This document shows, one piece after another, positions 10,894 to 64,000 of a DNA stretch of 64,000 bases (positions are counted from its first letter, which is position 1; every line of letters begins with the position of its first letter). The stretch is from Candidatus Omnitrophota bacterium (lineage in GTDB: Bacteria > Omnitrophota > Gorgyraeia > 2-01-FULL-45-10). The notes beneath the pieces were generated by a model. The model did no database searches. It saw only the letters and a list, made by a program, of their open reading frames with translations, and had not been told where the DNA came from. The position numbers and the translations under genes were made by a program. Location: the NCBI GenBank assembly GCA_041650935.1, contig JBAZKH010000001.1, positions 139,945 through 203,944 of the forward strand, given 5' to 3'.

Positions 10894-10897
10894 AGAC

Positions 10898-10937
10898 GAG
10901 TTATCCACAATGTAGGGGACGTTTAAACGTCCCCTAC
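10898..10937 (+). repeat. ~40-bp element GAGTTATCCACAATGTAG + GGGGACGTTTAAACGTCCCC hairpin (copy 2)
   Basis: Shares the 5' flank, the GACGTTTAAACGTC core and the 3' CTAC with the copy at 5181..5220. Confidence 0.6.
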
Positions 10938-10958
10938 TGCAGAATGATGGGCTGAAAC

Positions 10959-11954: not shown

Positions 11955-12066
11955 AATTTTTCGTCTGTGGAGAAATCCCCTTTCGGGATTGTGCCTCGCG
12001 GGCACGAATCCCTGCGGGGATTTCGACGGCGGGACTAGAGTGGCAGACGAAAAATTTCCATACTAA
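11955..12066 (+). repeat. ~110-bp GC-rich nested palindrome between asd and truA
   Basis: Outer stem TTTTCGTCTG/CAGACGAAAA encloses a long imperfect hairpin GAAATCCCCTTTCGGGATTGTGCCTCG|CGGGCACGAATCCCTGCGGGGATTTC. Confidence 0.5.
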
Positions 12067-12068
12067 TC

Positions 12069-12803: not shown

Positions 12804-12804
12804 T

Positions 12805-13416
12805 ATGAAGAAGAGATATACGACGATCGCATTCGACCTGGGCAATACCGTTATCAGGTTCGACCACAATATCTCGGCGCGTAAGATAGCCAACCTCTTC
12901 AATATCGATTCCAGGAAGATATATGATACTTTTTTTGATTCGGAAGTAACGAGGGCATTCGATAGGGGGCGGTTGTCATCCAGGCAGTTTCACAAAGAAG
13001 CGACGCGGGTGCTGGGCATAGTGCTTCCATATATGGACTTCGCGAAAATCTGGAGCGAGATATTCTGGGCAGATGAGAAAGTCTGCGGCCTTGTGCGGGA
13101 GCTTAAAAGCTTGAATTACCGGTTATTCCTCCTCTCCAATATAAACCGCATCCATTTCGAATATATCGAAAAACGGTTCGACATCATCAAGGCCTTCGAC
13201 GAACTAATCCTTTCCTATATGGTCGGCGCTATAAAGCCCGAGCCTTTGATATACGAGGATGTCATAAGAAGGGCCGGCGGCAACAGGCAGGATATCCTTT
13301 ATATCGACGACAGGGAGGATCTTATAAAGGAAGCAACCGCGATGGGTATCGATTCGATCCGGTTTGAAGATTTTGATCTCTTAAAACAAGAGATGGCGCA
13401 TAGAGACATCCTGTGA
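12805..13416 (+). CDS. HAD-superfamily hydrolase (subfamily IA-like)
   Basis: Motif I FDLGNTV, motif IV-like DDREDL. Start taken at ATG 12805, just after the truA stop. Confidence 0.7.
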   Translation: MKKRYTTIAFDLGNTVIRFDHNISARKIANLFNIDSRKIYDTFFDSEVTRAFDRGRLSSRQFHKEATRVLGIVLPYMDFAKIWSEIFWADEKVCGLVRELKSLNYRLFLLSNINRIHFEYIEKRFDIIKAFDELILSYMVGAIKPEPLIYEDVIRRAGGNRQDILYIDDREDLIKEATAMGIDSIRFEDFDLLKQEMAHRDIL

Positions 13417-13418
13417 GG

Positions 13419-13436
13419 TTTTCCACCCCGGGGTGT
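13419..13436 (+). terminator. GC palindrome TTTCCACCCCGGGGTG (second copy)
   Basis: CACCCCGGGGTG is a perfect palindrome, followed by an A/T-rich tract. Confidence 0.5.
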
Positions 13437-13470
13437 AAAATTAAGATTTAAAAAAGTTAGACATTTTCAC

Positions 13471-13498
13471 TTGACAAATCTTTCCTGTGTGGTAAACT
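13471..13498 (+). promoter_or_regulatory. sigma70-like promoter TTGACA-N16-TAAACT for the giant ORF
   Basis: TTGACA at 13471-13476 and TAAACT at 13493-13498, about 170 nt upstream of the SD AGGAGG and ATG 13671. Confidence 0.5.
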
Positions 13499-13670
13499 AC
13501 ACACAAGTTGTTTTATCCGCCTTCGCTAACTGACTTAAAATAACGGAAAGCTTCGGCGGACACTTTAATACAGAATGTAACAGCGAACGCTTGGCAAAAT
13601 TGCCGGGCGTTTTTTATTTTTATAAAAGAGTTTAATAAGTCGAAATACTACAAAACAGGAGGAGCTATAA

Positions 13671-16600
13671 ATGAAGAATAAGATATTAATAAAATCTTTG
13701 AGTATAGTCGTTTTATGCGCATTTCTATTTAACGATCTCGCCTATGGCCTGAGTCCTATAGTCGTGTCGGGCCCCGATGGTGGAGGCTCCGGCACCAGAG
13801 ATGACATGTACGCCCTCGGCAAGAAGTTATTTGCCGCGAAGTGGCTCGGTCCCGGCTCAATCGGTGCGATGGACATGTCCCGTGTTGGTATCCCGAAATT
13901 TCGCGGAACCGCCCCGAAGATAAAGAACGTCTCAAATTTCCGCAGGGTGACTTACCGGGAAGACATGGAATTTCCCGCCGGCTGGTCAAATAACAAAGTG
14001 AATAGGGAGTTGCTAAAGTCTCGGGACCTCATCTCTGCCCTCAGATGTTTCAGGAAGAATGAAGCCGCAATATCGGGTGAATTCCTATCTATCGAAGAAG
14101 GGTATTTTGAACCGGAGCGGAAGGGTGAACTGCCGATAGCCAGGACGGAAATACTTGATAACGGCATGCTTAAGCTCATCGTACATACGGAATTTGTCCA
14201 GATGTGGGACGATCTGCTGGCCCGCGATATATGGTTCGATCACACCTTCCCGGACGGTAAGACCAGGACCGTGAGCGCTGCGTGGGCGCTATTTTACCGC
14301 CTGGCCAAGCACGAGATGGCGGATAGGGTTAAGGTAGGAGCGTATCATAAAGGCGGAGGGCACATATCAAGCTTTTCTTTCGGGAGCATTCCCGAAATAT
14401 TCAGCAATGAGTTTTCGGCAAACGAGATCGGCGGGCGATATAATATCATAAACGACGCTATATGGCTCTGGTATCTGGGCTCTTATTCCTATACCAACAA
14501 GACGAGATACAATAATAGAACCGCGAAGGCGAGGTACAACTGGATATTTAACGGTAAGAAGGCTAAGGAGCTTGAGCTCGACCAGGAATTTCCCAATCTT
14601 CGCGGCGGCGAAAACAAGGCAAATAGGGAATTTGCCATCAAGCTGGCCCTGAATATAAATAAGACGTGTTTTGAAAAAGGTAGAATAGTGTGGGAGACCG
14701 TAGTCGATCAAAAATTCATCGATGCCTACGAACGGCGACGACAGAGGATTTATTCTGTCCTACCCGCTACCGGCCGCGACGATGATCGAAAGCCGCGCGC
14801 GCATGACCGTTGGGCCAGGGGTGAGGCCGGGCCGGCTAAGAAAGATCTTGCCGCGGCCAGCGTCGACGATATCACGGCGCTTCTAAGGAAGTATGGCCTT
14901 AAGCCGGCTACTATATCCGAACGCGAATGGATAGCTAGTGTCGCGTCGATGCTGTGTGTGGAAGCAGGCTTTTCGAAGATTGCCCCGCTGGTGAATAAAC
15001 TGTGCTTAGTGCAGGACCTCGGGCGTTATATCGAGGATACAGAACCGGAACTTTACGGGCGGGTAAAGGCAGCTTTTAAAAAGCATGGGCTGGAGACTAC
15101 CGCGGATGCGCTTATAGATGCCGCGAAAGAAGCCGGTTTTACCGATATGATGGATTTCGCAAGAAATGTTATAGGCGGCGAGATAGAGTGGAATCCAAAG
15201 ACCGAAGAAGCCGCCCGCGGATTGGCCGATCATGAAAATAGGACCTTGGAATTACTGGAAGATGAGGGTTATTCTATAGGGCAGTTCGAAGTAAACCTCA
15301 TACCTGCGCACCATGATTTTTCCAAGCTATCTACCGAAACTACGCCGGTAAAGCGGGCTATTACGGCGGCTATCCGGCTGGCGCTTATACTCAATTATTC
15401 TAACAGGAATAAAGGCGATTCGATGGAAGCGGTAGAGAGTTTTATGGTTAGCAGGATTAACACGGAAGGTATGGCCGGGTATGGTATAGATGCGATGCAG
15501 AACTACCGCAGGCTGCTTGCAGCGGAAGGCGGCCAGCTTTTAGCGAGAATAAGAGAAGCGCGGGCGGCATATTCCGCCGATTCTGTCATAAGAGAAGGTG
15601 ATGCGGAATTTTTGGCATCTCTGCAGGGACGATTAATGTCCGGCGAACCACCTGTTGCCGGTGCAGGGTCGGACGGATCTGTTATTGAAGGCAAACTCAC
15701 TATAGGTGACCTTAATAGAGCGGTCATAAGAGAGATAAATAGTGATTCCGGCATAACAGTATCGGATGCAGAAGGATATATAGAATTATGGGGAAACTTT
15801 ATTGCGGAGCACGCCGCGGAGAACACGACTGTTAATATCTCGGATATCGAGAACATTCTTGCCAGTAAGGGCGAAGAGACTATTGGCTGGCGCGAAAGTA
15901 TAAGAGCATTAATAACTCCTTTATCTGTTGGGATAGGTATTGTATGGGGCTATACAGGCTTTTGGTATATAGCGGCAATGCATTATGTCGCAGGGGCAGT
16001 ATTTTTTGGCGATTTTATATATAACAATTTCATAAAAGGGAAGGATGAAAAAGAGGGTTTTGCGGCTCTGGCAGGATACCTCAGGAAGGCCAAGTTGGGC
16101 GTGCCGGGCCAGGCAGTGACTTTCTTCGCGATAGGAACCCCATCCGTTACGCCGAAAGCAACCCTGGCGAATCTGACCATAGATGCCCTTACCGGAGAAA
16201 TTACAAAAGCGCTGAAACATGACTTTAGCCTGACAATTTGGGATAGATTTAGATATGGGGAGTTGTGGGGCAAAGTCATTGAAAAGTATGGAGAAAATGC
16301 GGCCATTAGTATTTCAAATATAGAGAAGGGCCTTATTAATAAGAGAAGCCGGCTCATCGGATGGTGCGGTGCAGGAATAGCTGCAGGCTGTGTATTTGGC
16401 GCTGCAGGCGTCCTTTGCGGTATCGCCGTTCCTTGGGCAACGGCATTATTTGATTTAATTACAGTATATTATTCGATAGAGGGTATCTTTGGGCTTGTCG
16501 GCACTAGACAGCAAGACTTAGCTGCGCTGGCAGGCTACCTTAAAAAAATTGAGTATGAGTTGAGGAGCCAAGAGGCAGGAGAGGCAGTGGAAACGCCTGC

Positions 16601-19600
16601 TCAACCACAGCGTGATGACAAACACAGCCCTGGCGAGCCGCCGACGGCGGGATCGATCGACGGAGTAAAGCCGTCCGACCTTGCCATACATCCGATGCTG
16701 AATGCGCTTATTAATAAATATTTGCAAGGCGGGAATGGAAATGCTTGCGTATCAGAAGATATAAAGACCCCGTTTTTTGACAAACTTTACTTGCTGGGAG
16801 ACGCTAATGATTTTACGTTCCGGGATATTTTCGACAAGCTTGTCAACCGGGAAATGCGAGAGCAGCATATGAACCGGCCGGATGCGGAAGCCGCATTGGT
16901 CATACAGCTTGTAAACCACTACAGAAGCTATGCCCATATTAACAGGCATATGGTCGAAGCGTTCAAGAACCAGCTTGCCCAGCAGGTCGAGCATTTCGGC
17001 GTCTACCATAACGGCGCCATATACGTTATGCGCGGGCTTATAGGAAGTAAAGATGAGATAATACAGCATGCGGTCCTGGAGTGCCGTATCCATAGAGAAT
17101 GCGCTGAAAGCCTGGATTATAACGGTCAAGGCGCGGAATCGGCCTACCGGTCGTGGAGAGATCCAATAGACAGCCGGGAGATGGACGTAAATGTCGCTAT
17201 TCCCGAACACGGCATTAATATAAGAGGGCGAATGACGTATAAGCGGTTTGTCGACCTGGCTTATGACGCCGCGGAGAAAGCGTATCCTCTATCGAGCCTG
17301 ATCCCAAAAAATAAACGGCATAAGCTGGGCGACCTGAGCTATGCCCTGCCCGGTGAACCACCTGTTGCCGGTGTAGGGTCGGACGGCGCCGGCGCTGAAA
17401 GTAAACTTACCATAGACGACCTTACTAGGGCGGTTATACGCAGTATAAATGATGACCCCAGCCTGACGGAATCAGTTATAGAGGGATATGTAGACTTGTG
17501 GAACGATTTTATTCAAGAGCGTCCTGAGGATAATGCGACCGTTAATATCTCGGATATCAAGAAGGCTCTTGCCGAGAAGAACGAACAGCTTACTCCTTTG
17601 GCCGGGGTTGTTATAGAAGCGACTACGGCCGCTATATTTTTTGCCGTAGGTGTCATATGGAGCATCACGGGCCCTTGGTATGTGGCGGCAATATATTATG
17701 CCATAAGTACAGGATTTCTTGCCGATTCCATAAATAATTATCTTTCTCATCATAAACAAAAAGACTTCATGGCGCTGGCAGGCTACCTTAAAAAAATTGA
17801 GTATGAGTTGAGGAGCCAAGAGGCAGGAGAGGCAGTGGAAACGCCTGCTCGGATGCCCGAAGAAACCGACCGGCGGATAAAGCGCGGTAAGTCCCCGGAT
17901 TGGGCGCTCACTGTAATTGCGCTCTCCGGCCTGGAAGAAATTACGATAAAAGATTATTTGGATCAATTTGACTGGGCGATAGAAGAGTATCCGGAGTTTG
18001 ACCTTGACGTCCGCGCCGAAAAGAAGCCGGAATCTACCGCAAGGAGAGACCTTTACCTAAACCCCCGTTCGTTGGAAATAATGGGTATCATCGAACCCGC
18101 AAGCCGTCTTCCGGGCTCGAGGGAATATAGGTGGCGATTGACGGAAAAAGGAAGACGCCTGGCAGAGCTTACCGTCCGGATGAGGAAAAAGATCGAGGAA
18201 GCCTGGCAGATAGTCCCGTCCGGCATACGATGTGATGGAACTACGAGCGAAGAGCTGATTATTGTGGAGGACGATAAAAAAGTTTTAGAGAGCGAACTTA
18301 AAAGCCTGCTTAGATTAAATGGCCGTGACCTTGCGCAAAAATTAGCGGCGGCAAGGTTGGAAGATAGATGTGAAATCGATGACATTCTCAGAGATTTAAG
18401 TGGTAATGCCCGCGTCTCGGAAAAACTGCGTACTTGTATAGAAGATGCGAAGGCCGCGGCGGCGGAGTTTAACAAAGTAACGTCGATGCTGGAACCGCGG
18501 AAAGCCGGCGTGAAGCGCCGTGAGCCGCCTACGATGCAGGAAAAACTTGAGCCGGAGGAGTTTTTTGCGCAAAATAGGACTAAAAATGCAGAGCCCATTA
18601 AGCCGATGAGCAGCCTGCCATATAGTCACGATGACAACATAAGGTTTATGTCCCAAACAGGAAAAGAACGACAGCTTGCGCCCCAAAACTCTGCCGAACC
18701 TGCGCGTATAAGCGTGGGCGGGTCGGAGAAAACCGAAGCCATATCCGTTCCATCATTGGCCGATATCCGCAATATTAGCAGTGCTTTTGCTGCAAGATTA
18801 CCAAGTAATTTTCCGGATTCTTTTAGAACAAGACGCGATCTTCGATTGTGGATGCTCAACGATATCCAATCTTTAAGAGCGCAGTTTTTAGAAAATATGG
18901 CAAGAGCAGGGGGCTATAAAAAGACAGATGTGATGTATCCGCAATATTCAGGCTGGGCTATTGAATGTGATAATAAACGATCTGAAGCTGAAAGGGTATA
19001 TGGAATACTATTCGGCGAAGGGGAAGCGAAACCGGCCCGGCCGCGCGACAACGCCCGCTTTGATTACAAATCTCCCGGCAGTCCGGCGCATTACCTGCTT
19101 TATATAGGGTTATATCCACCCATTCCCACGGGATGGAAGCCTCGGACATTAACCAGCGCCCACTTTTCGCAGATGGGGAAGATCAGTGACAGGACATTGC
19201 GGCGGGACAGAAAGTTTTTAGAAGATATTGGGTATCTGGACATAGAAAAGCCTACCTGGCTTACGGAGAAGGGTTACGCGGAAGCATGTGATTTTGCAGG
19301 CAGGCTGAAAACATTAGCCGCGCAGGTTAAGCCCGGTTACTCTGGGGATAGCCGTCTACTTGTACAGGATTTGATAAAAGAAGCAAATCCCCAAATACTT
19401 TCCGAAATCAAGAAGATGAACGACAAACTTCGGGCGGAAGCAAAATCAGTCCGGTTGAGCAAAGCTGACCAACGGAAAAGACTCGCTGCCATACTATCCG
19501 CAGCGAAGATAAAAGATCTGACCGCCCGCGTCACAGCATTAATATACTTACGGGACAATCTGCCCCGGGAGACTAAAAGAGAAGACGAAAAACTGAAGCG

Positions 19601-22600
19601 GTCCATTGTCGAAATAGCCGGTCAGAATGATAACCTGGCCGCCCGCGTCACAGCGTTGGCATACTTAAGAGATGTTCTGCCGTCAAGGACCGAGATCGAG
19701 TCCGAAAAGCTGTGGCAGTCCATCTGTGCAATAGCGACTCAGAAAAAAGATCTCACAGCCCGCGTCATGGCGTTGATATATATGAGGGATGAGTATGATC
19801 CCGACATTGACGCTGATAAACGCCAGGAAAAGCTCTGGAACTCTATCGGTAAAATAGCACGCCAGAAAAAAGACCTCACAGCCCGCGTCACAGCGCTTAT
19901 GTTTTTAAAAAGTCCAGACAGATGGGTACAACATGAATTCTCGCGGCTAGCACCGGATGGTGAACTTTTATATTTTTATCGTGATAGTGATAGGCGAAGA
20001 GCTAGCCCTATCCGTGAGATAGCTAACCAGGATAAAGACCTCACAGCCCGCGTTGCGGCGTTGATATGTCTGAGGAATGGAGGAGATTATAACTGTGAAG
20101 AACTCTGGCAGTCTATCCGTAGAATAGCCCACCAAAAGAGAGACCCTGTAGCCCGTGTCACAGCGTTGATATATATGAGAGATAATACACCGGAAATTGC
20201 CGGGGATGAACGCGAGCGCTTATTGCAAAGAATTCAAGGTAAAGAACCGGCCTCTGTATCCGTGCCTCGATTCGATTGGGTGGATACGTTAAGTCGCGCC
20301 GAAAGGAAGGAGATAGTAGACAATCTTGCACTTACAGATGAGCAAATAGCCGATAGAACCATCTTAAGGGCGGCTATTGCAGCGGTGACTGCGAATACAG
20401 AACAAGATAAAAAACAGGCAATGATTGTGCTCGCATGCCGTTTCCAGGAATTAGATGGCGATGGCTCGTACGCCGCCGCAGAACGCGCAGAACAGTCAAT
20501 AAAAGATATTCGCCGCGAAATAGATAACAAGGGAGAGATCGACCGGCGCACGGAATCCGGCAAGGGACAGGCAGCGGAAACACCTGCCCGGCCGCGCGAT
20601 GGAAATGACCGTTCTTGGAATGGCCATATAACGGAAGGCGATATAAGGATGCACGCGGATGTGGGTAATTCGGAAGATATTAACTGGCTTGTTGATGCCA
20701 GCGCTAACCAGCCCGATATGGTGGAGAAAATACTCACTGAGCCTAAATACGCCGCTGTACGCAAGCAGTATAAAGTGGCGCTAGCGAAATTACCATCAAT
20801 GCAATGGGGGATAAAAGATTTTACTAGTATGGCGCAATTCCTAGGAAAACATGCGGCTTCTTTTAAGAAACAGGTTGGTGGGTTCCATTTTTACATAGGA
20901 GTACCGGAACACTCGGATCAGCGTTCACTTAAAACATCTTTCATTTCTTATAACGCCAATTTTGGGAAAGGAATGAGCTATACTTTCCGAAAAGAACCGT
21001 CCGGAGAGATTTCGTTGATAGTCAATCGTGCTATATGTGATGGCATGGGGGAATCACATATTTTTACAATAAATGAAAACATGATACGAGAGGAATACGG
21101 ATCCAGGGCAGAGGTTATAGAAAATGGCTTGATAAAGGGATTTGTGTCCAAAGATGGGTGTTTGTATGTTCTTGTTAGTCATGCTGGGAAGGAATTTGCA
21201 AAAAATTATATACCTGAATTTGACCCTGAATATAAGTTTGTGTCTTTTGTCGAATCAATGCCCGGTACAGTAGTGACGACGCCGGTACTGGAGACGGATG
21301 TAGCGAAAACTGCGCAAGCTGCGACAGGTGTGTCAGCGGATGCGCAAGAAGTAACGCAACCAGAAGCAGAAGATCTCGAGAACCTCCATTATTATTGGCT
21401 TGCATTGGGAGCCGCCCAGCGAGAAGCAATAATTGAAAATATCGCTGAAGTTACTCTCAGAAGAGTGTCCTATGCCGATACTGATTTGTTGTACAGTGTA
21501 GCGGCAAGGGTAGGAGCCAAGATGCCGAACGAAATTAATCAGGCTATGGCAATGATTGTCAGATGTTTTAAATCGAGAGGAAAAGATGACACGGCCGCTC
21601 AAAAAACAGCGGAAGAGCTGGTGGAACTTGTCAACACGGCCTTAAATGCCATTAAGACACTCCCCGAACAAAGAATAAGGTTTCAATCTGCATTAGATGG
21701 AGCACGTAATAGGCTAACTGCAGAACAAATGGGTGTGAGATTCCCTGTTGCGCAACCCGCGGTAAATGAAAAACCCCAGGCCGCGGCAATATCAGATACT
21801 GCGACAGAATTGGTCGAGTTGATGGCAAAGAGAGATGCTTTGCCGGAGAGCGCCGACCTGCTTGTGGTCTTTGGCAGTCCGGATGCCGAAATGGTCGCGG
21901 CGGAAGCGGCTAAAATGTATCGTGAGCGTAAGATATCGCGTATATTGGTTTCCGGGAAATACGGAAAACATTGCACCCCGTGTGCGGATAACGGTGACTT
22001 TGGACGTGATAAGGATGGTAACATCGTCAGGGCGGAGGCATTAATAATGAGAGATGCTATTATTGCCGCCGGAGTGCCGGAGTCATCGATCCTGGTTGAA
22101 AAAGAATCCCAGGGGATGACCGATAACGGAGTATTTTCCGTGAATAAATTAATAGAGGCGAATATTGTGCCCAAAACGGTCATTTTTATGCATGCGCCCC
22201 TTATGCAGTTAAGAGGCTCGTTGGCTCTTCGCAATGCCTTGGCGCAAAATAAGATAGAAGCCGCGGTATACGATTATGCGGCGTCTATTCCCGTAAACCC
22301 TTCCGAAAAATTAAGCGCTATTATTTGGCAGGCAGGCCGGCTGGATATTGAAATCGAGCCGATCGTCGGCAAAGAGAGATATGCTCAAATAATACTTCTG
22401 CTGGAGAGCCTGAGGATGCCTGAAAAGAGCGCGGGGGAGCAGTCCGCGACTGGAATGAATATGCCGGTTGCAAACGAAGTCAATGTGGCCGAAGCGAAAC
22501 CGGCCCAGCCTGCGGTGCGCGCGGGCGGCAGGGCAAATAATTTAATCGAAATATCCGAATTAAATCAACATATCGTAGAATTGGAAGCGATGGCTTCCAG

Positions 22601-23828
22601 AGGGAAGTATGTTGCAGATGAACTTGCGGTTGCTCATGAACGGCTTTTAGCGCTTGCGAAAGCTGCAGCGGTCAATGCGCAAGAAGTAACACAACCCGCC
22701 GCGCAGGAAGCCGAAAACGCATCGGTTGCGCAGCCCACTTTAGAAGAGCTCACGGTGGAGATGTCCAGTGGAGCCACTGCGGTTGACTGGATGCCGGTGT
22801 GGGAAAACGTACTGCAAATGGTTTTAAGCAAAAAAGTGTACGGTTCTGCCGTAACAATAAGAGAATATATGGAGTGTAATGATGTTGATCGCGAAACGAC
22901 TGTTACTGCACTTTCTGAACTTGTTAGGCAAGGTTATTTAGTGCGATCTAATATTATAAGGTGGAGTTACGATCTTACGCCAAAAGCTGCCGTTGAAATA
23001 TTATGTGCACAAGCAATAGCTGAACAAGGGCTGGATACGGACGAATTCTGGAGCGCCCGCGCCGCGGCTATAAAAGATACGAAGAATAGAGCCATCATTA
23101 AGGCGATATCGGATTTCACCGCTCGGCAAGGTCCGAATGCGGGCCCGGGCGCTATGATCCCGCTTTCGAAGACGACGACGCTCAGCATCTGGCAGATAGT
23201 AAACCTGGCCCATCAAAACAGGATAGAGATCTTCCGGCCCCAGGAGGACGGCCGTTCCGCCGGCATGAAGAAGGCCCTTGATACTATCGAAAAGCGGAGA
23301 GGGGATATCATAAGCGATAGATTCTACACCGGGAATAATCTCGAGGCGATGCTTAGGGACCCGGCCAAAAAGGGCACATTAAGGATAGTACTCACCACAA
23401 ACGCGGAATCGAAGAGACTTGTGGAAGCCCTGTCCAGGAAAGATGTTACGCTATTTAAGTCTACGCGGCTATTGAATCTGACGCTTCCCAGGGAGTACAG
23501 CGCATATCTTCCGAACTCTAAGGAGAGGACGTACTACCAGGCGAAGATGATATTCGAAGCCATACTGGCGCGGTTATATGAAAAGGGCAAGACGCCTATG
23601 GTCGAGCTTATCATGAGGAGCGTCTTCGAAGGCCGCATAGATGGCGGTATGGATAAATTCCTGGAGACATTGGCCGAGGCCGAAGACGAAAAGGATAATC
23701 CCGACCCGGAGAAGATAAAGATAAGGATCGAAAACTGTCTTAACATAATCGTGAGGCTTTCCGAGGAAGTGGCCAGGTCGATCGAGCATTTGAAGTTGAT
23801 CATGAAGGAGTTCTGGACAGCGGCGTAA
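13671..23828 (+). CDS. giant secreted/membrane multidomain protein (3385 aa) of unknown function
   Basis: Single uninterrupted ORF with SD AGGAGG 8 nt upstream. N-terminal signal peptide. Two paralogous modules with hydrophobic helices, ~7 HEAT-like repeats, a DUF218/YdcF-like domain, winged-helix-like segments. No recognisable enzymatic core over most of its length. Confidence 0.85.
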   Translation: MKNKILIKSLSIVVLCAFLFNDLAYGLSPIVVSGPDGGGSGTRDDMYALGKKLFAAKWLGPGSIGAMDMSRVGIPKFRGTAPKIKNVSNFRRVTYREDMEFPAGWSNNKVNRELLKSRDLISALRCFRKNEAAISGEFLSIEEGYFEPERKGELPIARTEILDNGMLKLIVHTEFVQMWDDLLARDIWFDHTFPDGKTRTVSAAWALFYRLAKHEMADRVKVGAYHKGGGHISSFSFGSIPEIFSNEFSANEIGGRYNIINDAIWLWYLGSYSYTNKTRYNNRTAKARYNWIFNGKKAKELELDQEFPNLRGGENKANREFAIKLALNINKTCFEKGRIVWETVVDQKFIDAYERRRQRIYSVLPATGRDDDRKPRAHDRWARGEAGPAKKDLAAASVDDITALLRKYGLKPATISEREWIASVASMLCVEAGFSKIAPLVNKLCLVQDLGRYIEDTEPELYGRVKAAFKKHGLETTADALIDAAKEAGFTDMMDFARNVIGGEIEWNPKTEEAARGLADHENRTLELLEDEGYSIGQFEVNLIPAHHDFSKLSTETTPVKRAITAAIRLALILNYSNRNKGDSMEAVESFMVSRINTEGMAGYGIDAMQNYRRLLAAEGGQLLARIREARAAYSADSVIREGDAEFLASLQGRLMSGEPPVAGAGSDGSVIEGKLTIGDLNRAVIREINSDSGITVSDAEGYIELWGNFIAEHAAENTTVNISDIENILASKGEETIGWRESIRALITPLSVGIGIVWGYTGFWYIAAMHYVAGAVFFGDFIYNNFIKGKDEKEGFAALAGYLRKAKLGVPGQAVTFFAIGTPSVTPKATLANLTIDALTGEITKALKHDFSLTIWDRFRYGELWGKVIEKYGENAAISISNIEKGLINKRSRLIGWCGAGIAAGCVFGAAGVLCGIAVPWATALFDLITVYYSIEGIFGLVGTRQQDLAALAGYLKKIEYELRSQEAGEAVETPAQPQRDDKHSPGEPPTAGSIDGVKPSDLAIHPMLNALINKYLQGGNGNACVSEDIKTPFFDKLYLLGDANDFTFRDIFDKLVNREMREQHMNRPDAEAALVIQLVNHYRSYAHINRHMVEAFKNQLAQQVEHFGVYHNGAIYVMRGLIGSKDEIIQHAVLECRIHRECAESLDYNGQGAESAYRSWRDPIDSREMDVNVAIPEHGINIRGRMTYKRFVDLAYDAAEKAYPLSSLIPKNKRHKLGDLSYALPGEPPVAGVGSDGAGAESKLTIDDLTRAVIRSINDDPSLTESVIEGYVDLWNDFIQERPEDNATVNISDIKKALAEKNEQLTPLAGVVIEATTAAIFFAVGVIWSITGPWYVAAIYYAISTGFLADSINNYLSHHKQKDFMALAGYLKKIEYELRSQEAGEAVETPARMPEETDRRIKRGKSPDWALTVIALSGLEEITIKDYLDQFDWAIEEYPEFDLDVRAEKKPESTARRDLYLNPRSLEIMGIIEPASRLPGSREYRWRLTEKGRRLAELTVRMRKKIEEAWQIVPSGIRCDGTTSEELIIVEDDKKVLESELKSLLRLNGRDLAQKLAAARLEDRCEIDDILRDLSGNARVSEKLRTCIEDAKAAAAEFNKVTSMLEPRKAGVKRREPPTMQEKLEPEEFFAQNRTKNAEPIKPMSSLPYSHDDNIRFMSQTGKERQLAPQNSAEPARISVGGSEKTEAISVPSLADIRNISSAFAARLPSNFPDSFRTRRDLRLWMLNDIQSLRAQFLENMARAGGYKKTDVMYPQYSGWAIECDNKRSEAERVYGILFGEGEAKPARPRDNARFDYKSPGSPAHYLLYIGLYPPIPTGWKPRTLTSAHFSQMGKISDRTLRRDRKFLEDIGYLDIEKPTWLTEKGYAEACDFAGRLKTLAAQVKPGYSGDSRLLVQDLIKEANPQILSEIKKMNDKLRAEAKSVRLSKADQRKRLAAILSAAKIKDLTARVTALIYLRDNLPRETKREDEKLKRSIVEIAGQNDNLAARVTALAYLRDVLPSRTEIESEKLWQSICAIATQKKDLTARVMALIYMRDEYDPDIDADKRQEKLWNSIGKIARQKKDLTARVTALMFLKSPDRWVQHEFSRLAPDGELLYFYRDSDRRRASPIREIANQDKDLTARVAALICLRNGGDYNCEELWQSIRRIAHQKRDPVARVTALIYMRDNTPEIAGDERERLLQRIQGKEPASVSVPRFDWVDTLSRAERKEIVDNLALTDEQIADRTILRAAIAAVTANTEQDKKQAMIVLACRFQELDGDGSYAAAERAEQSIKDIRREIDNKGEIDRRTESGKGQAAETPARPRDGNDRSWNGHITEGDIRMHADVGNSEDINWLVDASANQPDMVEKILTEPKYAAVRKQYKVALAKLPSMQWGIKDFTSMAQFLGKHAASFKKQVGGFHFYIGVPEHSDQRSLKTSFISYNANFGKGMSYTFRKEPSGEISLIVNRAICDGMGESHIFTINENMIREEYGSRAEVIENGLIKGFVSKDGCLYVLVSHAGKEFAKNYIPEFDPEYKFVSFVESMPGTVVTTPVLETDVAKTAQAATGVSADAQEVTQPEAEDLENLHYYWLALGAAQREAIIENIAEVTLRRVSYADTDLLYSVAARVGAKMPNEINQAMAMIVRCFKSRGKDDTAAQKTAEELVELVNTALNAIKTLPEQRIRFQSALDGARNRLTAEQMGVRFPVAQPAVNEKPQAAAISDTATELVELMAKRDALPESADLLVVFGSPDAEMVAAEAAKMYRERKISRILVSGKYGKHCTPCADNGDFGRDKDGNIVRAEALIMRDAIIAAGVPESSILVEKESQGMTDNGVFSVNKLIEANIVPKTVIFMHAPLMQLRGSLALRNALAQNKIEAAVYDYAASIPVNPSEKLSAIIWQAGRLDIEIEPIVGKERYAQIILLLESLRMPEKSAGEQSATGMNMPVANEVNVAEAKPAQPAVRAGGRANNLIEISELNQHIVELEAMASRGKYVADELAVAHERLLALAKAAAVNAQEVTQPAAQEAENASVAQPTLEELTVEMSSGATAVDWMPVWENVLQMVLSKKVYGSAVTIREYMECNDVDRETTVTALSELVRQGYLVRSNIIRWSYDLTPKAAVEILCAQAIAEQGLDTDEFWSARAAAIKDTKNRAIIKAISDFTARQGPNAGPGAMIPLSKTTTLSIWQIVNLAHQNRIEIFRPQEDGRSAGMKKALDTIEKRRGDIISDRFYTGNNLEAMLRDPAKKGTLRIVLTTNAESKRLVEALSRKDVTLFKSTRLLNLTLPREYSAYLPNSKERTYYQAKMIFEAILARLYEKGKTPMVELIMRSVFEGRIDGGMDKFLETLAEAEDEKDNPDPEKIKIRIENCLNIIVRLSEEVARSIEHLKLIMKEFWTAA
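19480..20200 (+). other. array of ~7 degenerate 36-45-aa alpha-helical repeats, HEAT-like/PBS-lyase-like, inside the giant ORF
   Basis: Recurrent ...EKLWQSI..IA.QKKDLTARVTAL[IM]YLRD... in the translation. Confidence 0.55.
21860..22330 (+). other. DUF218 (YdcF/SanA/ElyC-like) domain embedded in the giant ORF
   Basis: LLVVFGSPDAEM...AAKMYRERKISRILVSGKYG...AEALIMRDAIIAAGVPESSILVEKESQGMTDNGVFS...KTVIFMHAPLMQLRG follows the DUF218 spacing (VLG...SGG...EA..M..GVP...E..S.nT.eN...H..R). Confidence 0.55.
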
Positions 23829-51070: not shown

Positions 51071-52564
51071 ATGGTACTGGGAAAAAATAAAAAGCTTATG
51101 AAAACACAAATCATACTTGCAGCCTTTACCCTGCTTCTCACCTCCTCCGCCTCTGCCGCCGACGTGAAGACGGCGGATCTTGCCGGCACGTGGTATCCGC
51201 GGGACAAAACAGAGCTGACCGCTTTGCTTCAGGGTTATCTTGATTCAGCCGATCCGCAAAAGATAGACGGAGAGGTCTTCGCGATCATTTCACCGCACGC
51301 TGGATATCAGTTTTCCGGGCCGGTTGCCGCCTATGGTTATAAGGCCGTCCGGGATAAAGGCGTTAAGACGGTAATCGTTATAGGTTTTAGCCATAAGAAA
51401 CGGTTTGACGGTATATCCGTGTATGCCGGTGGAGCGTGGAGAACGCCTCTGGGCGATATCGCGATCGACGAAGCGTTTGCAAACGAGCTGATATCGAAGA
51501 ACAAGAGGATATCTTTTAACCCCGGTCTCTTCGAAGGTGAAAATTCGGTCGAGATGCAAATTCCGTTCATCCAGCTTGCCCTGAAAGGCGCCAGGATCGT
51601 TCCCGTTGCTTTTGGGACCCAGGAATATTCCGATGCCGAGATATTGGCCGGGGCCCTGGCGTCTCTGCTTAAAGATAGGCGCGATTGCCTTATAGTCGCT
51701 TCCACGGATCTTTCGCATTACCATCCTTATGACCGGGCACTGCGTATTGATAACGAGCTTATATCTATATTGCAAAAGATGCGGCCGCGGGACCTGTACG
51801 ATGGGGCCCTGGCGGGAAGGTGCGAGCTCTGCGGTTCTATGCCGGTTGTCGCGACGCTCGCCGCGGCACAAAAGGCGGGATTCGACAGGATCGAAATCCT
51901 GAAGTACGCAAATTCAGGGGACACATCCGGGGACAGGAGCAAAGTTGTCGGGTATTTGAGCGCGGCGATCTATAAAGGGCAAGCGCAAAAGAAAGAGGGA
52001 GCGGCCATGTTTAACGAATCCCAGAAAAAAAAGCTACTTCAGATTGCCAGAGAATCGCTGACGGCTTATGTTAATGGCGGTAAGCGAAAGGTATTTTCCG
52101 AGACGGACCCTCTATTGAACCAGGATCTAGGGGCGTTCGTGACATTGCATGAAAAGGGCGAACTCAGGGGATGCATCGGCAGCATATCCGGCCATGGCCC
52201 GCTATATCAGACTGTAGCGGGTATGGCGATAGAGGCAGCAACAGGCGATCCGCGTTTTCCCGTTCTTTCAAAGGAAGAGATAGATAAGGTCGACATAGAA
52301 ATATCCGTACTTACGCCGCTCCAAAAAGTTTCCGGTTACGCGGACGTTAAAATTCCCGGAAACGGTGTTTTAATAAGGCGCGGAACGAGAAGCGGTGTTT
52401 TCCTGCCGCAGGTTGCGGCCGAGACAGGATGGAACAGGGACGAGTTTTTGTCCTACCTGTGCGCGCACAAGGCCGGATTGCCGCAGGATGCCTGGAAAGA
52501 TCCGGACACGGAAATTTATATTTTTTCGGCAGAGGTATTTGGAGAGAAAGGGGGAGGCAGGTGA
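51071..52564 (+). CDS. fusion protein: Memo1-like (AmmeMemoRadiSam protein B-like) + AMMECR1 domain, with N-terminal signal peptide
   Basis: N-terminal half has ...FAIISPHAGYQFSGPVAAYGY.... C-terminal half has the AMMECR1 core ...GAFVTLHEKGELRGCIGSISG.... Signal peptide MKTQIILAAFTLLLTSSASAADV. Confidence 0.75.
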   Translation: MVLGKNKKLMKTQIILAAFTLLLTSSASAADVKTADLAGTWYPRDKTELTALLQGYLDSADPQKIDGEVFAIISPHAGYQFSGPVAAYGYKAVRDKGVKTVIVIGFSHKKRFDGISVYAGGAWRTPLGDIAIDEAFANELISKNKRISFNPGLFEGENSVEMQIPFIQLALKGARIVPVAFGTQEYSDAEILAGALASLLKDRRDCLIVASTDLSHYHPYDRALRIDNELISILQKMRPRDLYDGALAGRCELCGSMPVVATLAAAQKAGFDRIEILKYANSGDTSGDRSKVVGYLSAAIYKGQAQKKEGAAMFNESQKKKLLQIARESLTAYVNGGKRKVFSETDPLLNQDLGAFVTLHEKGELRGCIGSISGHGPLYQTVAGMAIEAATGDPRFPVLSKEEIDKVDIEISVLTPLQKVSGYADVKIPGNGVLIRRGTRSGVFLPQVAAETGWNRDEFLSYLCAHKAGLPQDAWKDPDTEIYIFSAEVFGEKGGGR

Positions 52565-53481
52565 AGAAGAAAATTTTAATAATAGTTATAGCCGTAGTTG
52601 CTGCCGCGCTGACAATAGCATTTATCATTCATAAGCCTTCTTCGGAAGCCGGGAAACGGGCGGGAAAGACGATTGCCTCCGGGAACCCTGAAAAAGAAAA
52701 GGGTGCGGGACAGGCGAAAAAATCGTTCCGTAAAGGAATGGGAGGGATCAGCGTAAGCATAAAAAATTCGAGCGGTAAGACCCAATATCTGAGATTAAAG
52801 GCTTTTAGCGTGGAAGGAAAACGGTCCAGTTCGTTTGCGGCCACGTTTGGATCGGGACGCATGCAGGAATTACCGCCGGGTAAATACGACATCGAGATAG
52901 ATACTGTGCCCGCGCTGATATATAAAAATATAGAGGTGAAAGAAGGCGTGGAGACGGTTGAAGATCTCGGCGCGATTACGGGCGCGCTTACAGTTAAGGC
53001 GCTCAATTCCAAAAAGAAGGAAACGCCTTTACCGGTAAAAATTATCCGCGCGAAATCCGATATTGCGGTCGCGGTTATTACGACAAACAGGCCTGCCGAG
53101 ATAATGCCCGGTATATACGATATCGATATAGAGACTATGCCCAAACAATCGAAGAGCGACGTTAAAATAGAGAGCGGTAAAGAGACGGTTGTGGATATGG
53201 GCGTGGTATCCGGGTCCGTAACGGTTAAGGCTGTCGACGAGAACGGCAAAGAAGCGCGCCTGAATGTCCGGATAAAAAATGCGGCTAACAATGTGATAGC
53301 GGCTTCTGCGATTACGGGCCGGCCGGTCGAGATAACGCCGGGAGAGTATGATATAGAGATTTTGTCGTCGCCTTCTCAGGCGCGGAAGGGCGTGAAAGTT
53401 ACGGCGGGCGAGGATACGGTCATAGATTTTTCTATTCAATCAACTCCGCCGCGGCCGGCTGCTCCGGCCAGGAAGAGATAA
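52561..53481 (+). CDS. membrane-anchored protein with three ~50-aa beta-rich repeats (PEGA/CarboxypepD_reg-like)
   Basis: GTG start overlapping the previous stop. TM IIVIAVVAAALTIAFII. Repeats around LPPGKYDIEIDT / IMPGIYDIDIET / ITPGEYDIEILS. Pro-rich C-terminus. Confidence 0.6.
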   Translation: MKKKILIIVIAVVAAALTIAFIIHKPSSEAGKRAGKTIASGNPEKEKGAGQAKKSFRKGMGGISVSIKNSSGKTQYLRLKAFSVEGKRSSSFAATFGSGRMQELPPGKYDIEIDTVPALIYKNIEVKEGVETVEDLGAITGALTVKALNSKKKETPLPVKIIRAKSDIAVAVITTNRPAEIMPGIYDIDIETMPKQSKSDVKIESGKETVVDMGVVSGSVTVKAVDENGKEARLNVRIKNAANNVIAASAITGRPVEITPGEYDIEILSSPSQARKGVKVTAGEDTVIDFSIQSTPPRPAAPARKR

Positions 53482-60152: not shown

Positions 60153-61364
60153 ATGGCAAGCTCTATACAGATACTGCTCGATAAATGCACCGGTTGTACG
60201 CTATGCGTGAAAGCGTGCCCGTTCGGCGCGATCCACATTGCGAACAAAAAAGCCGTTATAGACATGGCGAAGTGCAACTTATGCGGCGCGTGCGTACCGG
60301 TTTGCAAATTCAAGGCGATCAAACTCAATAAAGAAGCCGCCGCGAAGCGGGATCTTTCCGCTTACAAGGATGTCTGGGTATTCTGCGAGCAGAAGAAGGG
60401 CGTTATCCAGACGATTTCGTTCGAACTTCTCGGAGAAGGCAAGAAGCTCGCCAAAAAACTGGGTGTGAAACTCTGCGCGGTAATACTGGGCCACGATATC
60501 GAATCTAAGGTCGAAGAGCTCGCCCACCGCGGCGCGGATAAAGTATACATAGTCGACGCGCCGGAACTTAAATCCTACCAGGACGATTCCTATACGAAGG
60601 TTCTCGTCGAATTAGTGAAAGAATATAAGCCCGAAGTCTTGCTTTGCGGCGCTACGACCATAGGCAGGAGCCTTGTCTCGCGTGTCGCGGTAAAGATAGA
60701 CGCAGGATTGACCGCCGACTGCACCGGGCTCGATATAGACGAAAAAGATAGATTACTCCTCCAGACGCGGCCCGCATTCGGCGGCAACATCATGGCTACG
60801 ATCATTACACCGAACCACAGGCCGCAGATGTCGACTGTCCGGCACAAGGTAATGAAAGAAGCGGATATCCACAAGGGCCACAAGGCAGAAGCCATACGCA
60901 AGAAATACCCGGCCGAAGTTTTGAAGTCCCGGACGACGCTTCTGGATATAGTAGAAGAGATAGAAGAGACTGTTAACCTTGCCGAAGCCGACATTATCGT
61001 TTCAGGCGGCAGGGGAGTGGGCGGGCCTGAGAATTTCAGCCTTATAAAGGAGCTTGCCAAAGTGCTTGGAGGCGCTGTGGGCGCTTCGCGCGCAACTGTC
61101 GATGCCGGCTGGATACCGTATTCGCACCAGGTCGGGCAGACAGGGAAGACAGTCTGCCCTAAGCTCTACATAGCCTGCGGCATAAGCGGTCAGATACAGC
61201 ATCTGATCGGTATGCAGTCGTCAAAAGTCATAGTAGCCATCAATAAAGATCCCGATGCCCCTATCTTCAAAGTCGCCACGTATGGTATAGTCGGCGACCT
61301 TTTCGATGTAGTCCCCGCACTCACCAAAGAATTTAGGAAGATACTGGAAAAAGTTAAGCTATAA
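60153..61364 (+). CDS. etfA: electron transfer flavoprotein alpha subunit with N-terminal 2x[4Fe-4S] ferredoxin domain
   Basis: CTGCTLCVKACP and CNLCGACVPVC clusters, followed by the EtfA FAD-binding domain. Confidence 0.85.
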   Translation: MASSIQILLDKCTGCTLCVKACPFGAIHIANKKAVIDMAKCNLCGACVPVCKFKAIKLNKEAAAKRDLSAYKDVWVFCEQKKGVIQTISFELLGEGKKLAKKLGVKLCAVILGHDIESKVEELAHRGADKVYIVDAPELKSYQDDSYTKVLVELVKEYKPEVLLCGATTIGRSLVSRVAVKIDAGLTADCTGLDIDEKDRLLLQTRPAFGGNIMATIITPNHRPQMSTVRHKVMKEADIHKGHKAEAIRKKYPAEVLKSRTTLLDIVEEIEETVNLAEADIIVSGGRGVGGPENFSLIKELAKVLGGAVGASRATVDAGWIPYSHQVGQTGKTVCPKLYIACGISGQIQHLIGMQSSKVIVAINKDPDAPIFKVATYGIVGDLFDVVPALTKEFRKILEKVKL

Positions 61365-61524
61365 AAAAGCTTGATTTCTAGCCTTGTCGATATCGATGCT
61401 ATAGTGTAAACTTATATTGTAGACGCTAGGAATAAATATACTTGCCAGAACGCAACCATTCCGGCGAGTATATTTTTTCGACTGTTATTAAAAAGATTTA
61501 AGAACCTGAGGATACTATTAGTTA

Positions 61525-64000
61525 TGTCAGACGCTAGAGCTAATGGTTATATCCGGATTATCATGCGAAGGCCATTTAAAGCAATGACTTCTGTCATCGC
61601 TTTGATGGCCTTTGTCTTTAATACGCTATACTATGATATTGCCTGGGCTGATAGAACGCCCTCAGTGCTTACTAGCGTCGGCACTGATCCAAGAGCTGTC
61701 AGTCCTGTCAGTCCGGGCACTTTTAAAGAGTTGAACGTAAAGACCTTCAACCTCCCGCAGTCGCTTGGGACTATCAAAGACTCCTGGAGCCCTGCGCCAT
61801 CCACCCTTCGACGCGGCCCATCGGCAAACTATGGCCTTGCTCAGGATGAATTACGACCTTCGGTCGTAGTTCATATCCAGGACGCTCACTGCAATTACTA
61901 TGCCCAGCACACGATCACCGCGATACTCGAATATCTTACGAAAGAATACGGTATAAGTACGATAAATCTCGAGGGCGGCACGGCCGAATACGACCTCGAT
62001 GCGTTCACAAGGATAAAGGATAAGGAAGTGCGGGAGCGTGTTGCCGACTTTTTTGTCAAAGAGGGTGTCGTAAGCGGCGCCGAGTACTTTGCCCTGAATA
62101 ACCCGGATAAGGCGCAGTTATGGGGTGTCGAAGACGAGGGATTGTATATCGACAATCTCAAAGTCTACCGCGATTCGCTAAGTTATAAGGACAACGCCGA
62201 CAAGCTCCTTAAAAATTTGAGCTATCTCCTGACGAATCTTAAGATGAAGATATATTCCAAAGCGCTTCTCGAGCTCGACCTGAAGTATAACCAGTACAAG
62301 TCCGGCAGTATAGAATTTAAGGACTATATTAGTTACCTGGTTGCCAATGCAAAAGATAAGCTGATAGATATAAAGGCGTATCCCAACATCTTCCTGCTGA
62401 ACCAGGTCCTGAAACAGGAGGGTGATATAGACTTCGCAAAAGCCAATACCGAGCAGGATCTTTTTATAAATAAGATCGGGAAGCGGCTTTCCAAAAACAG
62501 CCTCAAAGAACTGGTCGCCAGGACCGTAGATTTCAGGGCGGATAAGATATCGCAAGTCGAATTCTACCGCTACCTTGTAAATAAGGCAAAAGACGCGGAT
62601 ATAACGGTAGAAAATTTCCCGGAGCTGGAAAAGTATATCGTCTATATATCTTCATACGCCGCTATCGACAAGTCTAAAATAATCGCCGAAACCGGCAGTC
62701 TCGAGGACAGTATCCGCGATTCTCTCTTCCGCAATGACAAGGAGCGGGAGCTCGACAGGCTGTCGAGGAACCTGGCGATCCTCAAGAATATATTCAATAT
62801 CTCGCTGACGAGGGCCGATTACCAATACTACAAAAATAACACGGGCGACTTTGCCATGAAGAATTACATCTCCTTTATCAGCCGCGAAGCGCCGCTCTGC
62901 AACATCAACGCAAAGACCGACGACGGTATTGCTAGGCTCGATGGGTATCGCGCGGATATTTTGAAGTTCTACGAATATTCTTTTAAACGCGACATCGCGT
63001 TTATGAGGAATATCAAATTTACGAAAGACGAACGACGAAAGACGAACGACGCGCGCCAGGTATCAATAGTCATTACCGGCGGTTTCCACACCGAAAACCT
63101 GTGCGAACTTTTTAAAAAGAATAAGATCGCCTATGTCTCTATAATCCCGAATTTCAAGCCGGGCGAAGGTTACGAGTGCCCGTATTACGGCCTCCTGGCA
63201 GGTAAACAGAATATCCTGGATGCGCGGATTAGCACTATGCTGGGCTCTGCACTTGCCGTGGCGAGCATCTTGAACAGACTGGGCATCAAAGTGGAAGGGC
63301 AGGCGGCCAGGCATATTTTAGATATCCGGATTGCGCTGGAAACGGCTGTCCAGGCGAACGGCGGCCGGATCGCGCTCTTCAACGCTAATGAGACTATAGT
63401 GATAGATGCGGACCTGAAGGTGCTTGATGAAGATGCCGGCGGTCTGCCGCGCGTAAACGCCGCGGATATCCTTAAGCCCTTTATAGCTGTACCGATGTCC
63501 GCCGTGCCTACGCTTACCGGGAGCCTTGACCGCGCCGGTGTTGTGTATGACGCTAAGAATAACCGGTGGGATTGGTCCGGGGTTAAGCCTGACGCGGATT
63601 GGGTGATGGACGAGATGCACGAGATGGAGATAAAACCTATCGTCGAGACGCTGGATGAGATGCCGCCGGCCGGTCTTATATCGTCACTTGATGATATGAA
63701 GGCCTTGCCGGTACTTTCTACCAGAGGTCGCGCGGATTTGCGCCTGAACATGATCGATATAGCGGGACGACAGGTTCCCTGCGTAGTCAAAATCCTCAAG
63801 AAGACGGATGCCGTGGAAAGGGAATATATTGCGGCGCAGATATACGAACGCCTTGGCATAGGGCCGCGTCTCTACGGTATTGTTAAGGATGCGAGCGGGA
63901 AGGCGGTAGGATACGCGATGGAAGTTGTCATCGGCGAATCGGTGATAGGTACAAAGCTCCAGGAAAGGCTGGGCAAAAACTTTGTCGTAGTTTTTAAAGA
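61525..64000 (+). CDS. large membrane-anchored protein, partial (more than 825 aa; 3' end beyond window); ChaN/TraB/Tiki-like signature and C-terminal protein-kinase-like region
   Basis: Frame 1 is open from ATG 61525 to the window end with no stop. Missing from the supplied ORF track because it is incomplete. N-terminal hydrophobic anchor SVIALMAFVFNTLYY. ...VVVHIQDAHCNYYAQHTITAILEYL... and ...IVITGGFHTENL... resemble the GTxH/GxxH superfamily. C-terminal ...VVKILKK...EREYIAAQIYERLGIGPRLYG...GYAMEVVIGESV resembles a kinase N-lobe. Confidence 0.7.

Follow-up and report, generated by a model that had tools for sequence, protein, structure and literature searches.

Omnitrophota, uncultured bacteria of ultra-small size, are thought to be host-dependent, and their long and giant proteins are largely unannotatable. 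The gene analyzed here begins near the 3' end of a 64,000-nucleotide stretch of a Candidatus Omnitrophota bacterium (hereafter the window; positions 139,945 to 203,944 of contig JBAZKH010000001.1, assembly GCA_041650935.1), runs past the end of it, and encodes a long protein that was compared with the described proteins closest to its parts. The N-terminal domain of this protein (the head) is closest to the TIKI superfamily (Tiki1/2, TraB/PrgY, GumN, the erythromycin esterases EreA-D, Bcr135/136, RRSP, and HopBA1), together with the haem-binding ChaN. The catalytic set of RRSP was defined experimentally as E3900-x-H3902, E3930, and H4030 with the conserved R4001, which was described as 'a highly conserved basic residue ... 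in all TIKI proteases', and H3902 and E3930 were equated with H85 and E113 of Bcr135 (PMC6254334). A second, kinase-like domain is closest to the minimal kinases (RIO1/RIO2, Bud32, the archaeal Ark RNA kinases, and the type III effector kinases NleH1/2, OspG, and HopBF1). The whole protein resembles the giant proteins of Omnitrophota, whose classes are distinguished by SecA_DEAD, C39 peptidase or dockerin content at lengths of at least 10-30 thousand amino acids (kaa) (West-Roberts et al. 2023, 10.1101/2023.11.21.568195; 10.64898/2026.06.07.730766) and whose N-terminal regions generally have no identifiable domains (10.1101/2023.11.21.568195). It also resembles the MARTX toxins, in which conserved termini surround a strain-variable array of enzymatic modules. 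With a probability of about 0.62, the gene product is a membrane-anchored modular protein that combines an active TIKI-type hydrolase head and a kinase-like module with a scaffold of constant head and tail.

The window carries the 5' 40% of the gene. The initial annotation, which was confined to the window, had described an unannotated open reading frame (ORF) of at least 825 codons and had proposed that the downstream sequence be obtained. This sequence was reached by an exhaustive phmmer search with residues 580-825 as the query, which returned a full-length protein of 2,060 amino acids (aa), designated P0114, whose residues 1-825 are identical to the window translation. The gene consists of 2,060 uninterrupted codons followed by a TAA stop at window-equivalent positions 67704-67706. 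The word 'unannotated' holds for function only, since the identical protein is deposited in GenBank as MFA5142714.1, 'MAG: hypothetical protein WC522_00920 [Candidatus Omnitrophota bacterium]'. The source of the window is a metagenome-assembled genome and one syntenic relative (locus L003) is split in two ORFs, which would be in keeping with an assembly chimera or a decaying pseudogene; this explanation is nevertheless extremely improbable. An independent assembly (Logan contig L025, SRR8542065) matches the window without a difference over 2,895 bases and contains the whole uninterrupted gene, NCBI, JGI, and ENA all have this sequence on a contig of 710 kb, and a head at the N-terminus with a tail at the extreme C-terminus is the norm of the family. 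In addition, 825 codons, let alone 2,060, would not stay open by chance (probability ~3e-19 for 825 stop-free codons, with a stop probability of 0.05 per codon derived from the regional base composition). Because L025 is identical over 2,895 bases and has the same ORF, a frameshift or artefactual read-through in the window part is ruled out. The open frame is a real, complete gene that is publicly annotated as hypothetical.

The first homology search retrieved 113 proteins, which were unnamed or labelled 'hypothetical', and every one with a taxon name belonged to Omnitrophota. The part that they share is an N-terminal module of ~580 aa, and no Pfam match was found on it in any of the 113; in BLAST, coverage by homologues declines from residue 580 to 690. 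Another 33 fragments were found with a core-only profile, bringing the retrieved family to more than 140 members, and a search of 5.8 billion proteins with this profile returned unannotated Omnitrophota fragments only, with no bridge to known families. Unlike the rest of the TIKI superfamily, the head is confined to Omnitrophota by all names available, and it always stands at the N-terminus of proteins with a membrane anchor, whose length is 870 to at least 6,950 aa. Conservation was assessed in an alignment (A1) of 92 sequences whose identity to the query is 24-56%. Residues E150, G151, G201, L207, Y208, E299, F304, Y374, F482, R489, G519, G520, and H522 are invariant in this alignment, and H117, Q119, D120, H122, N124, Q128, E187, E203, D204, R216, D490, and N525 are at least 90% conserved.

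A model of the head was generated with AlphaFold2 (AF2) using the family alignment, and its predicted local distance difference test (pLDDT) score was mostly >90 over residues ~75-555. Strands of the alpha/beta core lie at residues 113-120, 146-149, 153-156, 198-202, 512-519, and 536-542, the chain is all-helical between ~205 and 496, and the alpha/beta fold of the model is the one that characterizes the superfamily, in which helices flank a central parallel beta-sheet (PMC6254334). According to the alignment and the model, D120-x-H122, E150, and H522 each come after a core strand. Together with R489, these residues match the set of two His, two Glu, and one basic residue, with Asp in place of the first Glu. 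The spacing of H122 and E150 is 28 residues, which is identical to that in RRSP (H3902-E3930) and Bcr135 (H85-E113), and that of R489 and H522 is 33 residues, compared with 29 in RRSP (R4001-H4030). The Glu and Arg motifs are ~339 residues apart in the head and ~71 in RRSP, the gap being a family-specific helical bundle of ~270 aa. A Tiki/TraB/GumN/ChaN signature had been proposed earlier from two motifs, VVVHIQDAHCNYYAQH and VSIVITGGFHTENL, which were found at residues 113-128 and 512-525, respectively. The signature is supported at the level of the fold, and the order and spacing of the catalytic set match those of RRSP and Bcr135; the insertion between the motifs, which had been put at ~350 aa, is about 270 aa instead.

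It is quite unlikely that the head binds a ligand without catalysis, as ChaN does with haem, or that it is an inactive scaffold like the C2 domain of PMT, with the His, Glu, and Arg residues binding a cofactor or metal. Inactive members of the superfamily such as PMT lack the motif of two His and two Glu (PMC6254334), whereas the head keeps every motif position, invariant or at least 90% conserved, at 24-56% overall identity, a pattern typical of an active site. Judged from its sequence, the head would act as a hydrolase, most likely as a peptidase or an esterase, and by analogy with Ere, RRSP, and Tiki its His/acid pair would activate water. Residue conservation and the predicted structure support the view that the head represents a new family within the TIKI superfamily, restricted to one phylum, provided with a large insertion, and missed by current profile libraries.

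The bounds of the kinase-like domain (residues ~665-880, ~215 aa) were set by iterative local searches, and 24 copies were aligned. Residues ~690-825 are common to no member of the first homologue set, and a word-indexed search with the C-terminal 185 aa of the window translation returned no match, self included. An exhaustive search identified 26 further proteins of up to 6,950 aa with a homologous stretch; eight of them start with the head, and the module occurs anywhere from residue ~370 to ~6,450. When compared with PDB sequences, the domain profile gave a weak match to NleH1 (E = 3.3e-4), in which the beta3 Lys, the alphaC Glu, the hinge, and the Asp equivalent to that of DFG are aligned, and still weaker ones to NleH2 and OspG (E = 0.24). 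The corresponding residues of P0114 are K756, E767, and D854, the last of which (in IDAG) lies past the window end and is Asp in 22 of the 24 copies. The AF2 model of the domain is confident (pLDDT 88.7, predicted template modelling score 0.84) and has a bilobal kinase fold, with an N-lobe sheet and alphaC, a hinge, and a C-lobe with the Mg-binding Asp. NleH1, OspG, and HopBF1 are among its nearest structural relatives. The near-invariant residues of the 24 copies include W693, M695, P752, Q772, and G835. The initial annotation had recognized the N-lobe of a protein-kinase-like (Kdo/RIO/APH-type) fold from a C-terminal peptide, which was found at residues ~750-805, and the NleH1 match, the confident model, and the K756/E767/D854 triad bear this out.

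The check for catalytic motifs past the window that had been proposed at the same time gave a divided answer: the DFG-type D854 was found, and the conserved Asp and Asn of an HRD/HxD loop were not found in any conserved position among the 24 copies. The column of the NleH1 catalytic Asp holds six Glu, five Asp, four Asn, three Ser, and two His (Glu 841 in P0114), and the Asn-bearing segment of NleH1 has no counterpart. None of the 24 domain sequences matched a Pfam kinase model at E <= 10. Because the conserved HRD/Asn catalytic loop is missing, the domain may be no kinase. Its nucleotide-pocket triad is kept, and, as far as can be judged from these residues, the module would more probably have a nucleotide-binding or atypical role than that of a conventional protein kinase. 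The module is a new, catalytic-loop-less branch of the RIO/NleH-type minimal kinase folds. It further differs from the described minimal kinases in having a conserved N-terminal extension of ~70 residues (with W693 and M695) and in being embedded at variable positions in very long Omnitrophota proteins rather than free-standing. One head-bearing protein, P0129 (3,080 aa), has two tandem copies of the kinase-like domain, at residues 1296-1543 and 1579-1829.

Several results weigh against an active TIKI-type head joined to a nucleotide-binding module. The full protein has no Pfam or NCBIfam match at E <= 10, so that the Pfam search suggested in the initial annotation yielded nothing for the head or the kinase-like domain. 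Nine head cores from which the insert had been excised were missed by all of the TraB, ChaN, and Ere Pfam models (TraB_PrgY_gumN, Cofac_haem_bdg, and Erythro_esteras), one of them giving weak matches to DUF5694 and DUF5682 (E ~0.04). Family profiles compared with PDB sequences, which include the solved members of the superfamily, gave no match for the head, and Foldseek of the head against PDB gave no significant match (best E = 0.047). The first acidic residue of the head is Asp, not Glu, and the spatial clustering of the five catalytic residues is inferred from their positions in the predicted secondary structure. An acidic residue in the catalytic loop is present in only 11 of the 24 kinase-like sequences and no Asn is conserved there, and a nucleotide-binding kinase-like domain outside the cytoplasm would be awkward, ATP being scarce there. 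For the head, the several failed attempts at a sequence or profile link and the non-significant Foldseek scores would also suit an unrelated new fold family whose likeness to TIKI, ChaN, and Ere is convergent or generic to alpha/beta proteins. This is a distinctly improbable alternative, since Foldseek, although below significance, independently puts Bcr135 first and EreC third, and since five residues reproduce the catalytic set in order, strand position, and spacing (28 = 28; 33 vs 29). HopBA1 is also among the nearest structural relatives of the head.

The combination of the two domains, which had been called a non-standard architecture, is present, but accounts for only the N-terminal part of P0114 (2,060 aa), in whose family the head and tail are constant and the middle varies. 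The domain order of P0114 is a basic stub and hydrophobic helix, a head of ~490 aa, a linker domain, and the kinase-fold domain of ~215 aa, followed beyond the window by a hydrophobic hairpin (residues ~905-960), ~800 residues of unrecognizable modules, and a tail of ~270 aa (residues 1781-2060). The single N-terminal hydrophobic anchor described earlier is present at residues 21-42 (MTSVIALMAFVFNTLYYDIAWA): it is a helix in the AF2 model, the segment exceeds the Kyte-Doolittle threshold in the orthologues, and the 'WA' at the end of the helix is conserved in the family alignment. The helix is predicted to be a signal anchor or a cleavable signal peptide, with an N-in orientation that the charge distribution suggests. 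As an N-in signal anchor, the basic N-terminus and single hydrophobic helix would put the head outside the cytoplasmic membrane. The tail was found in 41 family proteins by iterative search and in 58 by a census with the A4 profile, always within nine residues of the C-terminus, and had no relative among PDB sequences. Proteins with head and tail cluster at 870-980 aa, from which the basic form of the family is taken to be head plus tail, together ~950 aa.

Synteny was used to follow the locus among related genomes. The gene order is shared with nine related Omnitrophota genomes, in which the homologue of the ORF stands directly 3' of the ETF-alpha gene. At these nine loci the protein identity of the six neighbours (FabG, ACP, FabF, acyl-CoA dehydrogenase, ETF-beta, and ETF-alpha) is 77-99%, and that of the ORF product is 44-66% over the first ~580-670 residues only. 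The syntenic products have 1,272 aa (L022), 1,392 aa (L003), 2,060 aa (here), and 2,650 aa (L006), and those still open at the end of the locus exceed 3,913 aa (L002), 3,942 aa (L007), and 4,003 aa (L001). Their middle parts range from ~600 to >3,400 aa and are unrelated between genomes in which the neighbouring proteins have 82-99% identity; outside the head and tail the orthologues have almost nothing in common except a few shared modules at differing positions. Between the constant head and tail, unrelated modules have thus been inserted or exchanged. The post-head regions of other family members contain Pkinase, metallophosphatase, CPBP, AAA, TIM-barrel or cNMP-binding domains, and most often nothing recognizable. 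The head also opens proteins of up to 6,950 aa in which the position of the kinase-like module varies, and the long orthologues have many hydrophobic segments. The locus evolves at a much higher rate than the adjacent genes, as would be expected if the protein faced other cells or the environment, and the rapid replacement of the middle suggests interaction with one or the other. Such interaction would fit the host-dependent lifestyle proposed for Omnitrophota in two sources (PMC10066038; 10.1101/2023.11.21.568195).

The constant ends and exchangeable middle parallel the MARTX toxins, among whose effectors RRSP is a TIKI-fold endopeptidase (PMC6254334), and could indicate a self-processing polyprotein or effector carrier. 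In such a protein, the head would be a cis-acting maturation protease that cuts the linkers between modules and thereby frees or activates the middle modules (kinase-like, ABC1, M48, methyltransferase-like, and others), whether at the surface of the cell or inside a host or prey cell. Secreted effectors (HopBA1, NleH1, OspG, and HopBF1) are among the closest structural relatives of both domains, N-terminal peptidases (C39 and S8) have been proposed as processors of Omnitrophota giant proteins (10.1101/2023.11.21.568195), and Ala/Pro-rich linkers are seen by eye between the modules. Self-processing is nonetheless unlikely. A scan of what follows the head in 117 family proteins revealed no recurrent motif for linkers or cleavage, the frequent 5-mers all coming from the conserved tail region, and Pfam detected no RTX repeats, cysteine protease domain or secretion-system signal. 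The commonest form of ~950 aa has almost nothing to release, which argues against cis-processing of cargo as the ancestral role of the head. A broader version, also doubtful, is a phylum-specific 'cassette carrier', in which the constant TIKI-type protease head and the tail would flank an insertion hotspot for recombined enzymatic modules (a minimal kinase-like domain, ABC1, M48, methyltransferase-like, and many unknown ones) that are processed or activated by the head at the cell surface or in the host or prey cell. This would amount to a multi-effector system like that of MARTX toxins, with an independent origin in the ultra-small, host-dependent Omnitrophota, and to an intermediate stage on the way to their giant proteins.

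Membership of the MARTX family was rejected for the modular protein described here, because its defining domains are missing. Pfam detected no RTX repeats, cysteine protease domain or type I secretion signal in P0114 and its orthologues, and the TIKI-fold domain is a constant N-terminal head here, as opposed to a cargo module there; the analogy is one of architecture, not homology. The likeness to the giant proteins of Omnitrophota extends to the same phylum, a multi-module layout with transmembrane segments, scattered enzyme domains in a mostly unannotatable sequence, and rapid divergence, and the syntenic orthologues of P0114 surpass 3,900 aa. The classes of West-Roberts et al. 2023 (SecA-DEAD 'Archaeovorin' and dockerin; at least 30,000 aa, with many transmembrane helices) were considered and rejected, since P0114 has 2,060 aa without such Pfam domains and the orthologue at L001 has only ABC1 and Peptidase_M48; the long orthologues do have several transmembrane segments. 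In contrast to the giant proteins, the head family covers lengths from 0.9 to at least 7 kaa, and its defining features are the TIKI-type head and the conserved tail. The head, the kinase-like domain, and the head-tail scaffold are not mentioned in 10.1101/2023.11.21.568195 and 10.64898/2026.06.07.730766, from both of which the word 'TraB' is absent, and a literature search found no paper in which Omnitrophota occur together with Tiki, TraB or GumN. Each domain belongs to a known superfamily, and the protein is an extension of known kinds rather than something categorically new.

The assignment gives one large Omnitrophota family (>140 members, with several paralogues per genome) a recognizable front end with testable chemistry. 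The head and tail together provide a marker for finding and classifying such Omnitrophota proteins, and the catalytic residues of the head define point mutants for biochemistry. The single locus, at which the product ranges from 0.9 kaa to >4 kaa, provides a natural series for how very long proteins grow. The coordinates of the features are listed in Table 1.

Table 1. Features of the gene within the window (residue numbers refer to P0114).
Feature	Position	Strand	Evidence or remark
Possible ribosome-binding site, GAGGA	61508..61512	+	11 nt 5' of the ATG; read from the sequence
First 825 codons and 2 bases of the 2,060-codon gene	61524..64000	+	Open frame; identical full-length protein; contig L025
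N-terminal hydrophobic helix, residues 21-42	61584..61649	+	Ends in AWA, basic stretch before it; AF2 helix 17-35
Head domain, residues 76-566	61749..63221	+	TIKI/ChaN/Ere/TraB-superfamily alpha/beta core split by a helical insert
Catalytic motif 1 (predicted), H117-I-Q-D120-A-H122	61872..61889	+	C-terminal end of a core beta-strand; >=90% conserved, n=92
E150 (in NLEGG)	61971..61973	+	28 residues past H122; invariant in alignment A1
Helical insert, residues ~205-470	62136..62933	+	Between the halves of the catalytic core; unbroken AF2 helices with high pLDDT; family-conserved
R489 (invariant) and D490	62988..62993	+	Conserved basic residue of the predicted active site; corresponds to R4001 of RRSP
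Catalytic motif 2 (predicted), G519-G-F-H522 (TGGFHTENL)	63078..63089	+	H522 invariant, 33 residues past R489; corresponds to H4030 of RRSP
Small alpha/beta linker domain, residues ~585-650	63276..63473	+	Conserved in part of the family only; AF2 pLDDT 55-94
First ~160 residues (665-825) of the ~215-aa minimal kinase-like domain (665-880)	63516..63998	+	Cut by the window end just past the hinge
K756, beta3 lysine equivalent (PvAvK)	63789..63791	+	Lys in 22/24; aligned with the VLK lysine of NleH1
E767, alphaC glutamate equivalent (ELIxAQ)	63822..63824	+	Glu in 23/24; in helix 102-118 of the domain model
Hinge-like motif, G796-Y-A-M-E-V-V-I-G804	63909..63935	+	G796, Y797, and G804 each in 22/24; aligned with the NleH1 hinge GIRMDKINGE

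The open frame of 825 codons up to the window end agrees with the earlier description, with the correction that the ATG lies one base upstream of the position given there (61525), from which the frame is full of stops. In the frame of the ATG, the last upstream stop is at 61407 and the sequence is open through 63998. This start is supported by the N-terminal residues (M-x-D-A-R...), which are conserved in the orthologues. As had also been pointed out, the frame was left out of the program-made ORF list because it has no stop inside the window, and only minus-strand ORFs were shown there. The minus-strand ORFs beneath the gene (e.g. 63185-63859) were rejected as shadow ORFs, the plus-strand frame being conserved in >100 homologues. 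At the other end of the gene, ~100 nt past the stop, a GC-rich inverted repeat followed by a run of seven T was found (L025 6602-6776, window-equivalent 67707 onwards); the hairpin and T-run are consistent with a putative intrinsic terminator closing the operon-like run.

Weak, non-significant Foldseek matches (E 0.1-2) were obtained between the helical insert of the head and the alpha-pore-forming toxins AhlB, ClyA, XaxA, and SmhA/B, and a relationship was rejected, the likeness probably being the generic similarity of long helices. In single genomes, paralogues of the head family occur in pairs no more than a few kb apart (L018 4021-5481 and 8396-10090; L023 7233-8546, minus strand, and 10001-11458), and the GenBank locus tags NT036_02145 and NT036_02150 are adjacent. 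The head family is therefore multi-copy and partly in tandem. The ~800-residue middle of P0114 had no Pfam or PDB match besides a weak Methyltransf_23 signal (residues 1057-1182, E = 0.26). By eye, a 'YYHGTS' motif was noted near residue 1245 and Ala/Pro-rich linkers such as PSAAAKP in the part encoded by L025 3131-6601 (residues ~905-2060). The orthologue at L001 (9926-21934, plus strand) has three hydrophobic segments just past the head, a Peptidase_M48 domain at residues 1086-1158, and an ABC1 atypical kinase domain at residues 2360-2619 (E = 4e-30). The two ORFs of the L003 locus are located at 9989-14167 (1,392 aa) and 14211-20660 (2,149 aa), with the tail on the second, and the split is either real or caused by an erroneous stop from sequencing or assembly.

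The window consists of housekeeping genes in a run on one strand. Another very long ORF, of 3,385 aa (13671-23828, plus strand), was without a Pfam match and contained no copies of the head, kinase-like domain or tail; no paralogue, second kinase-like domain or tail was found elsewhere in the window. The genes 5' of the ORF encode a Memo-AMMECR1 fusion, RsmE, a MiaB-like radical-SAM enzyme, FabG, ACP, FabF, acyl-CoA dehydrogenase, ETF-beta, and a ferredoxin-ETF-alpha fusion. Memo and AMMECR1 are fused in one ORF (51071-52564, plus strand), and ETF-alpha carries an N-terminal 2x[4Fe-4S] ferredoxin domain in one ORF (60153-61364, plus strand). An ORF of 350 aa (52429-53481, plus strand), as called from its first start codon, shares ~135 nt with the end of the Memo-AMMECR1 gene. 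Its product had a sub-threshold DUF2846 match alone and 44-62% identity, much below that of its neighbours, and its true start is probably further downstream.

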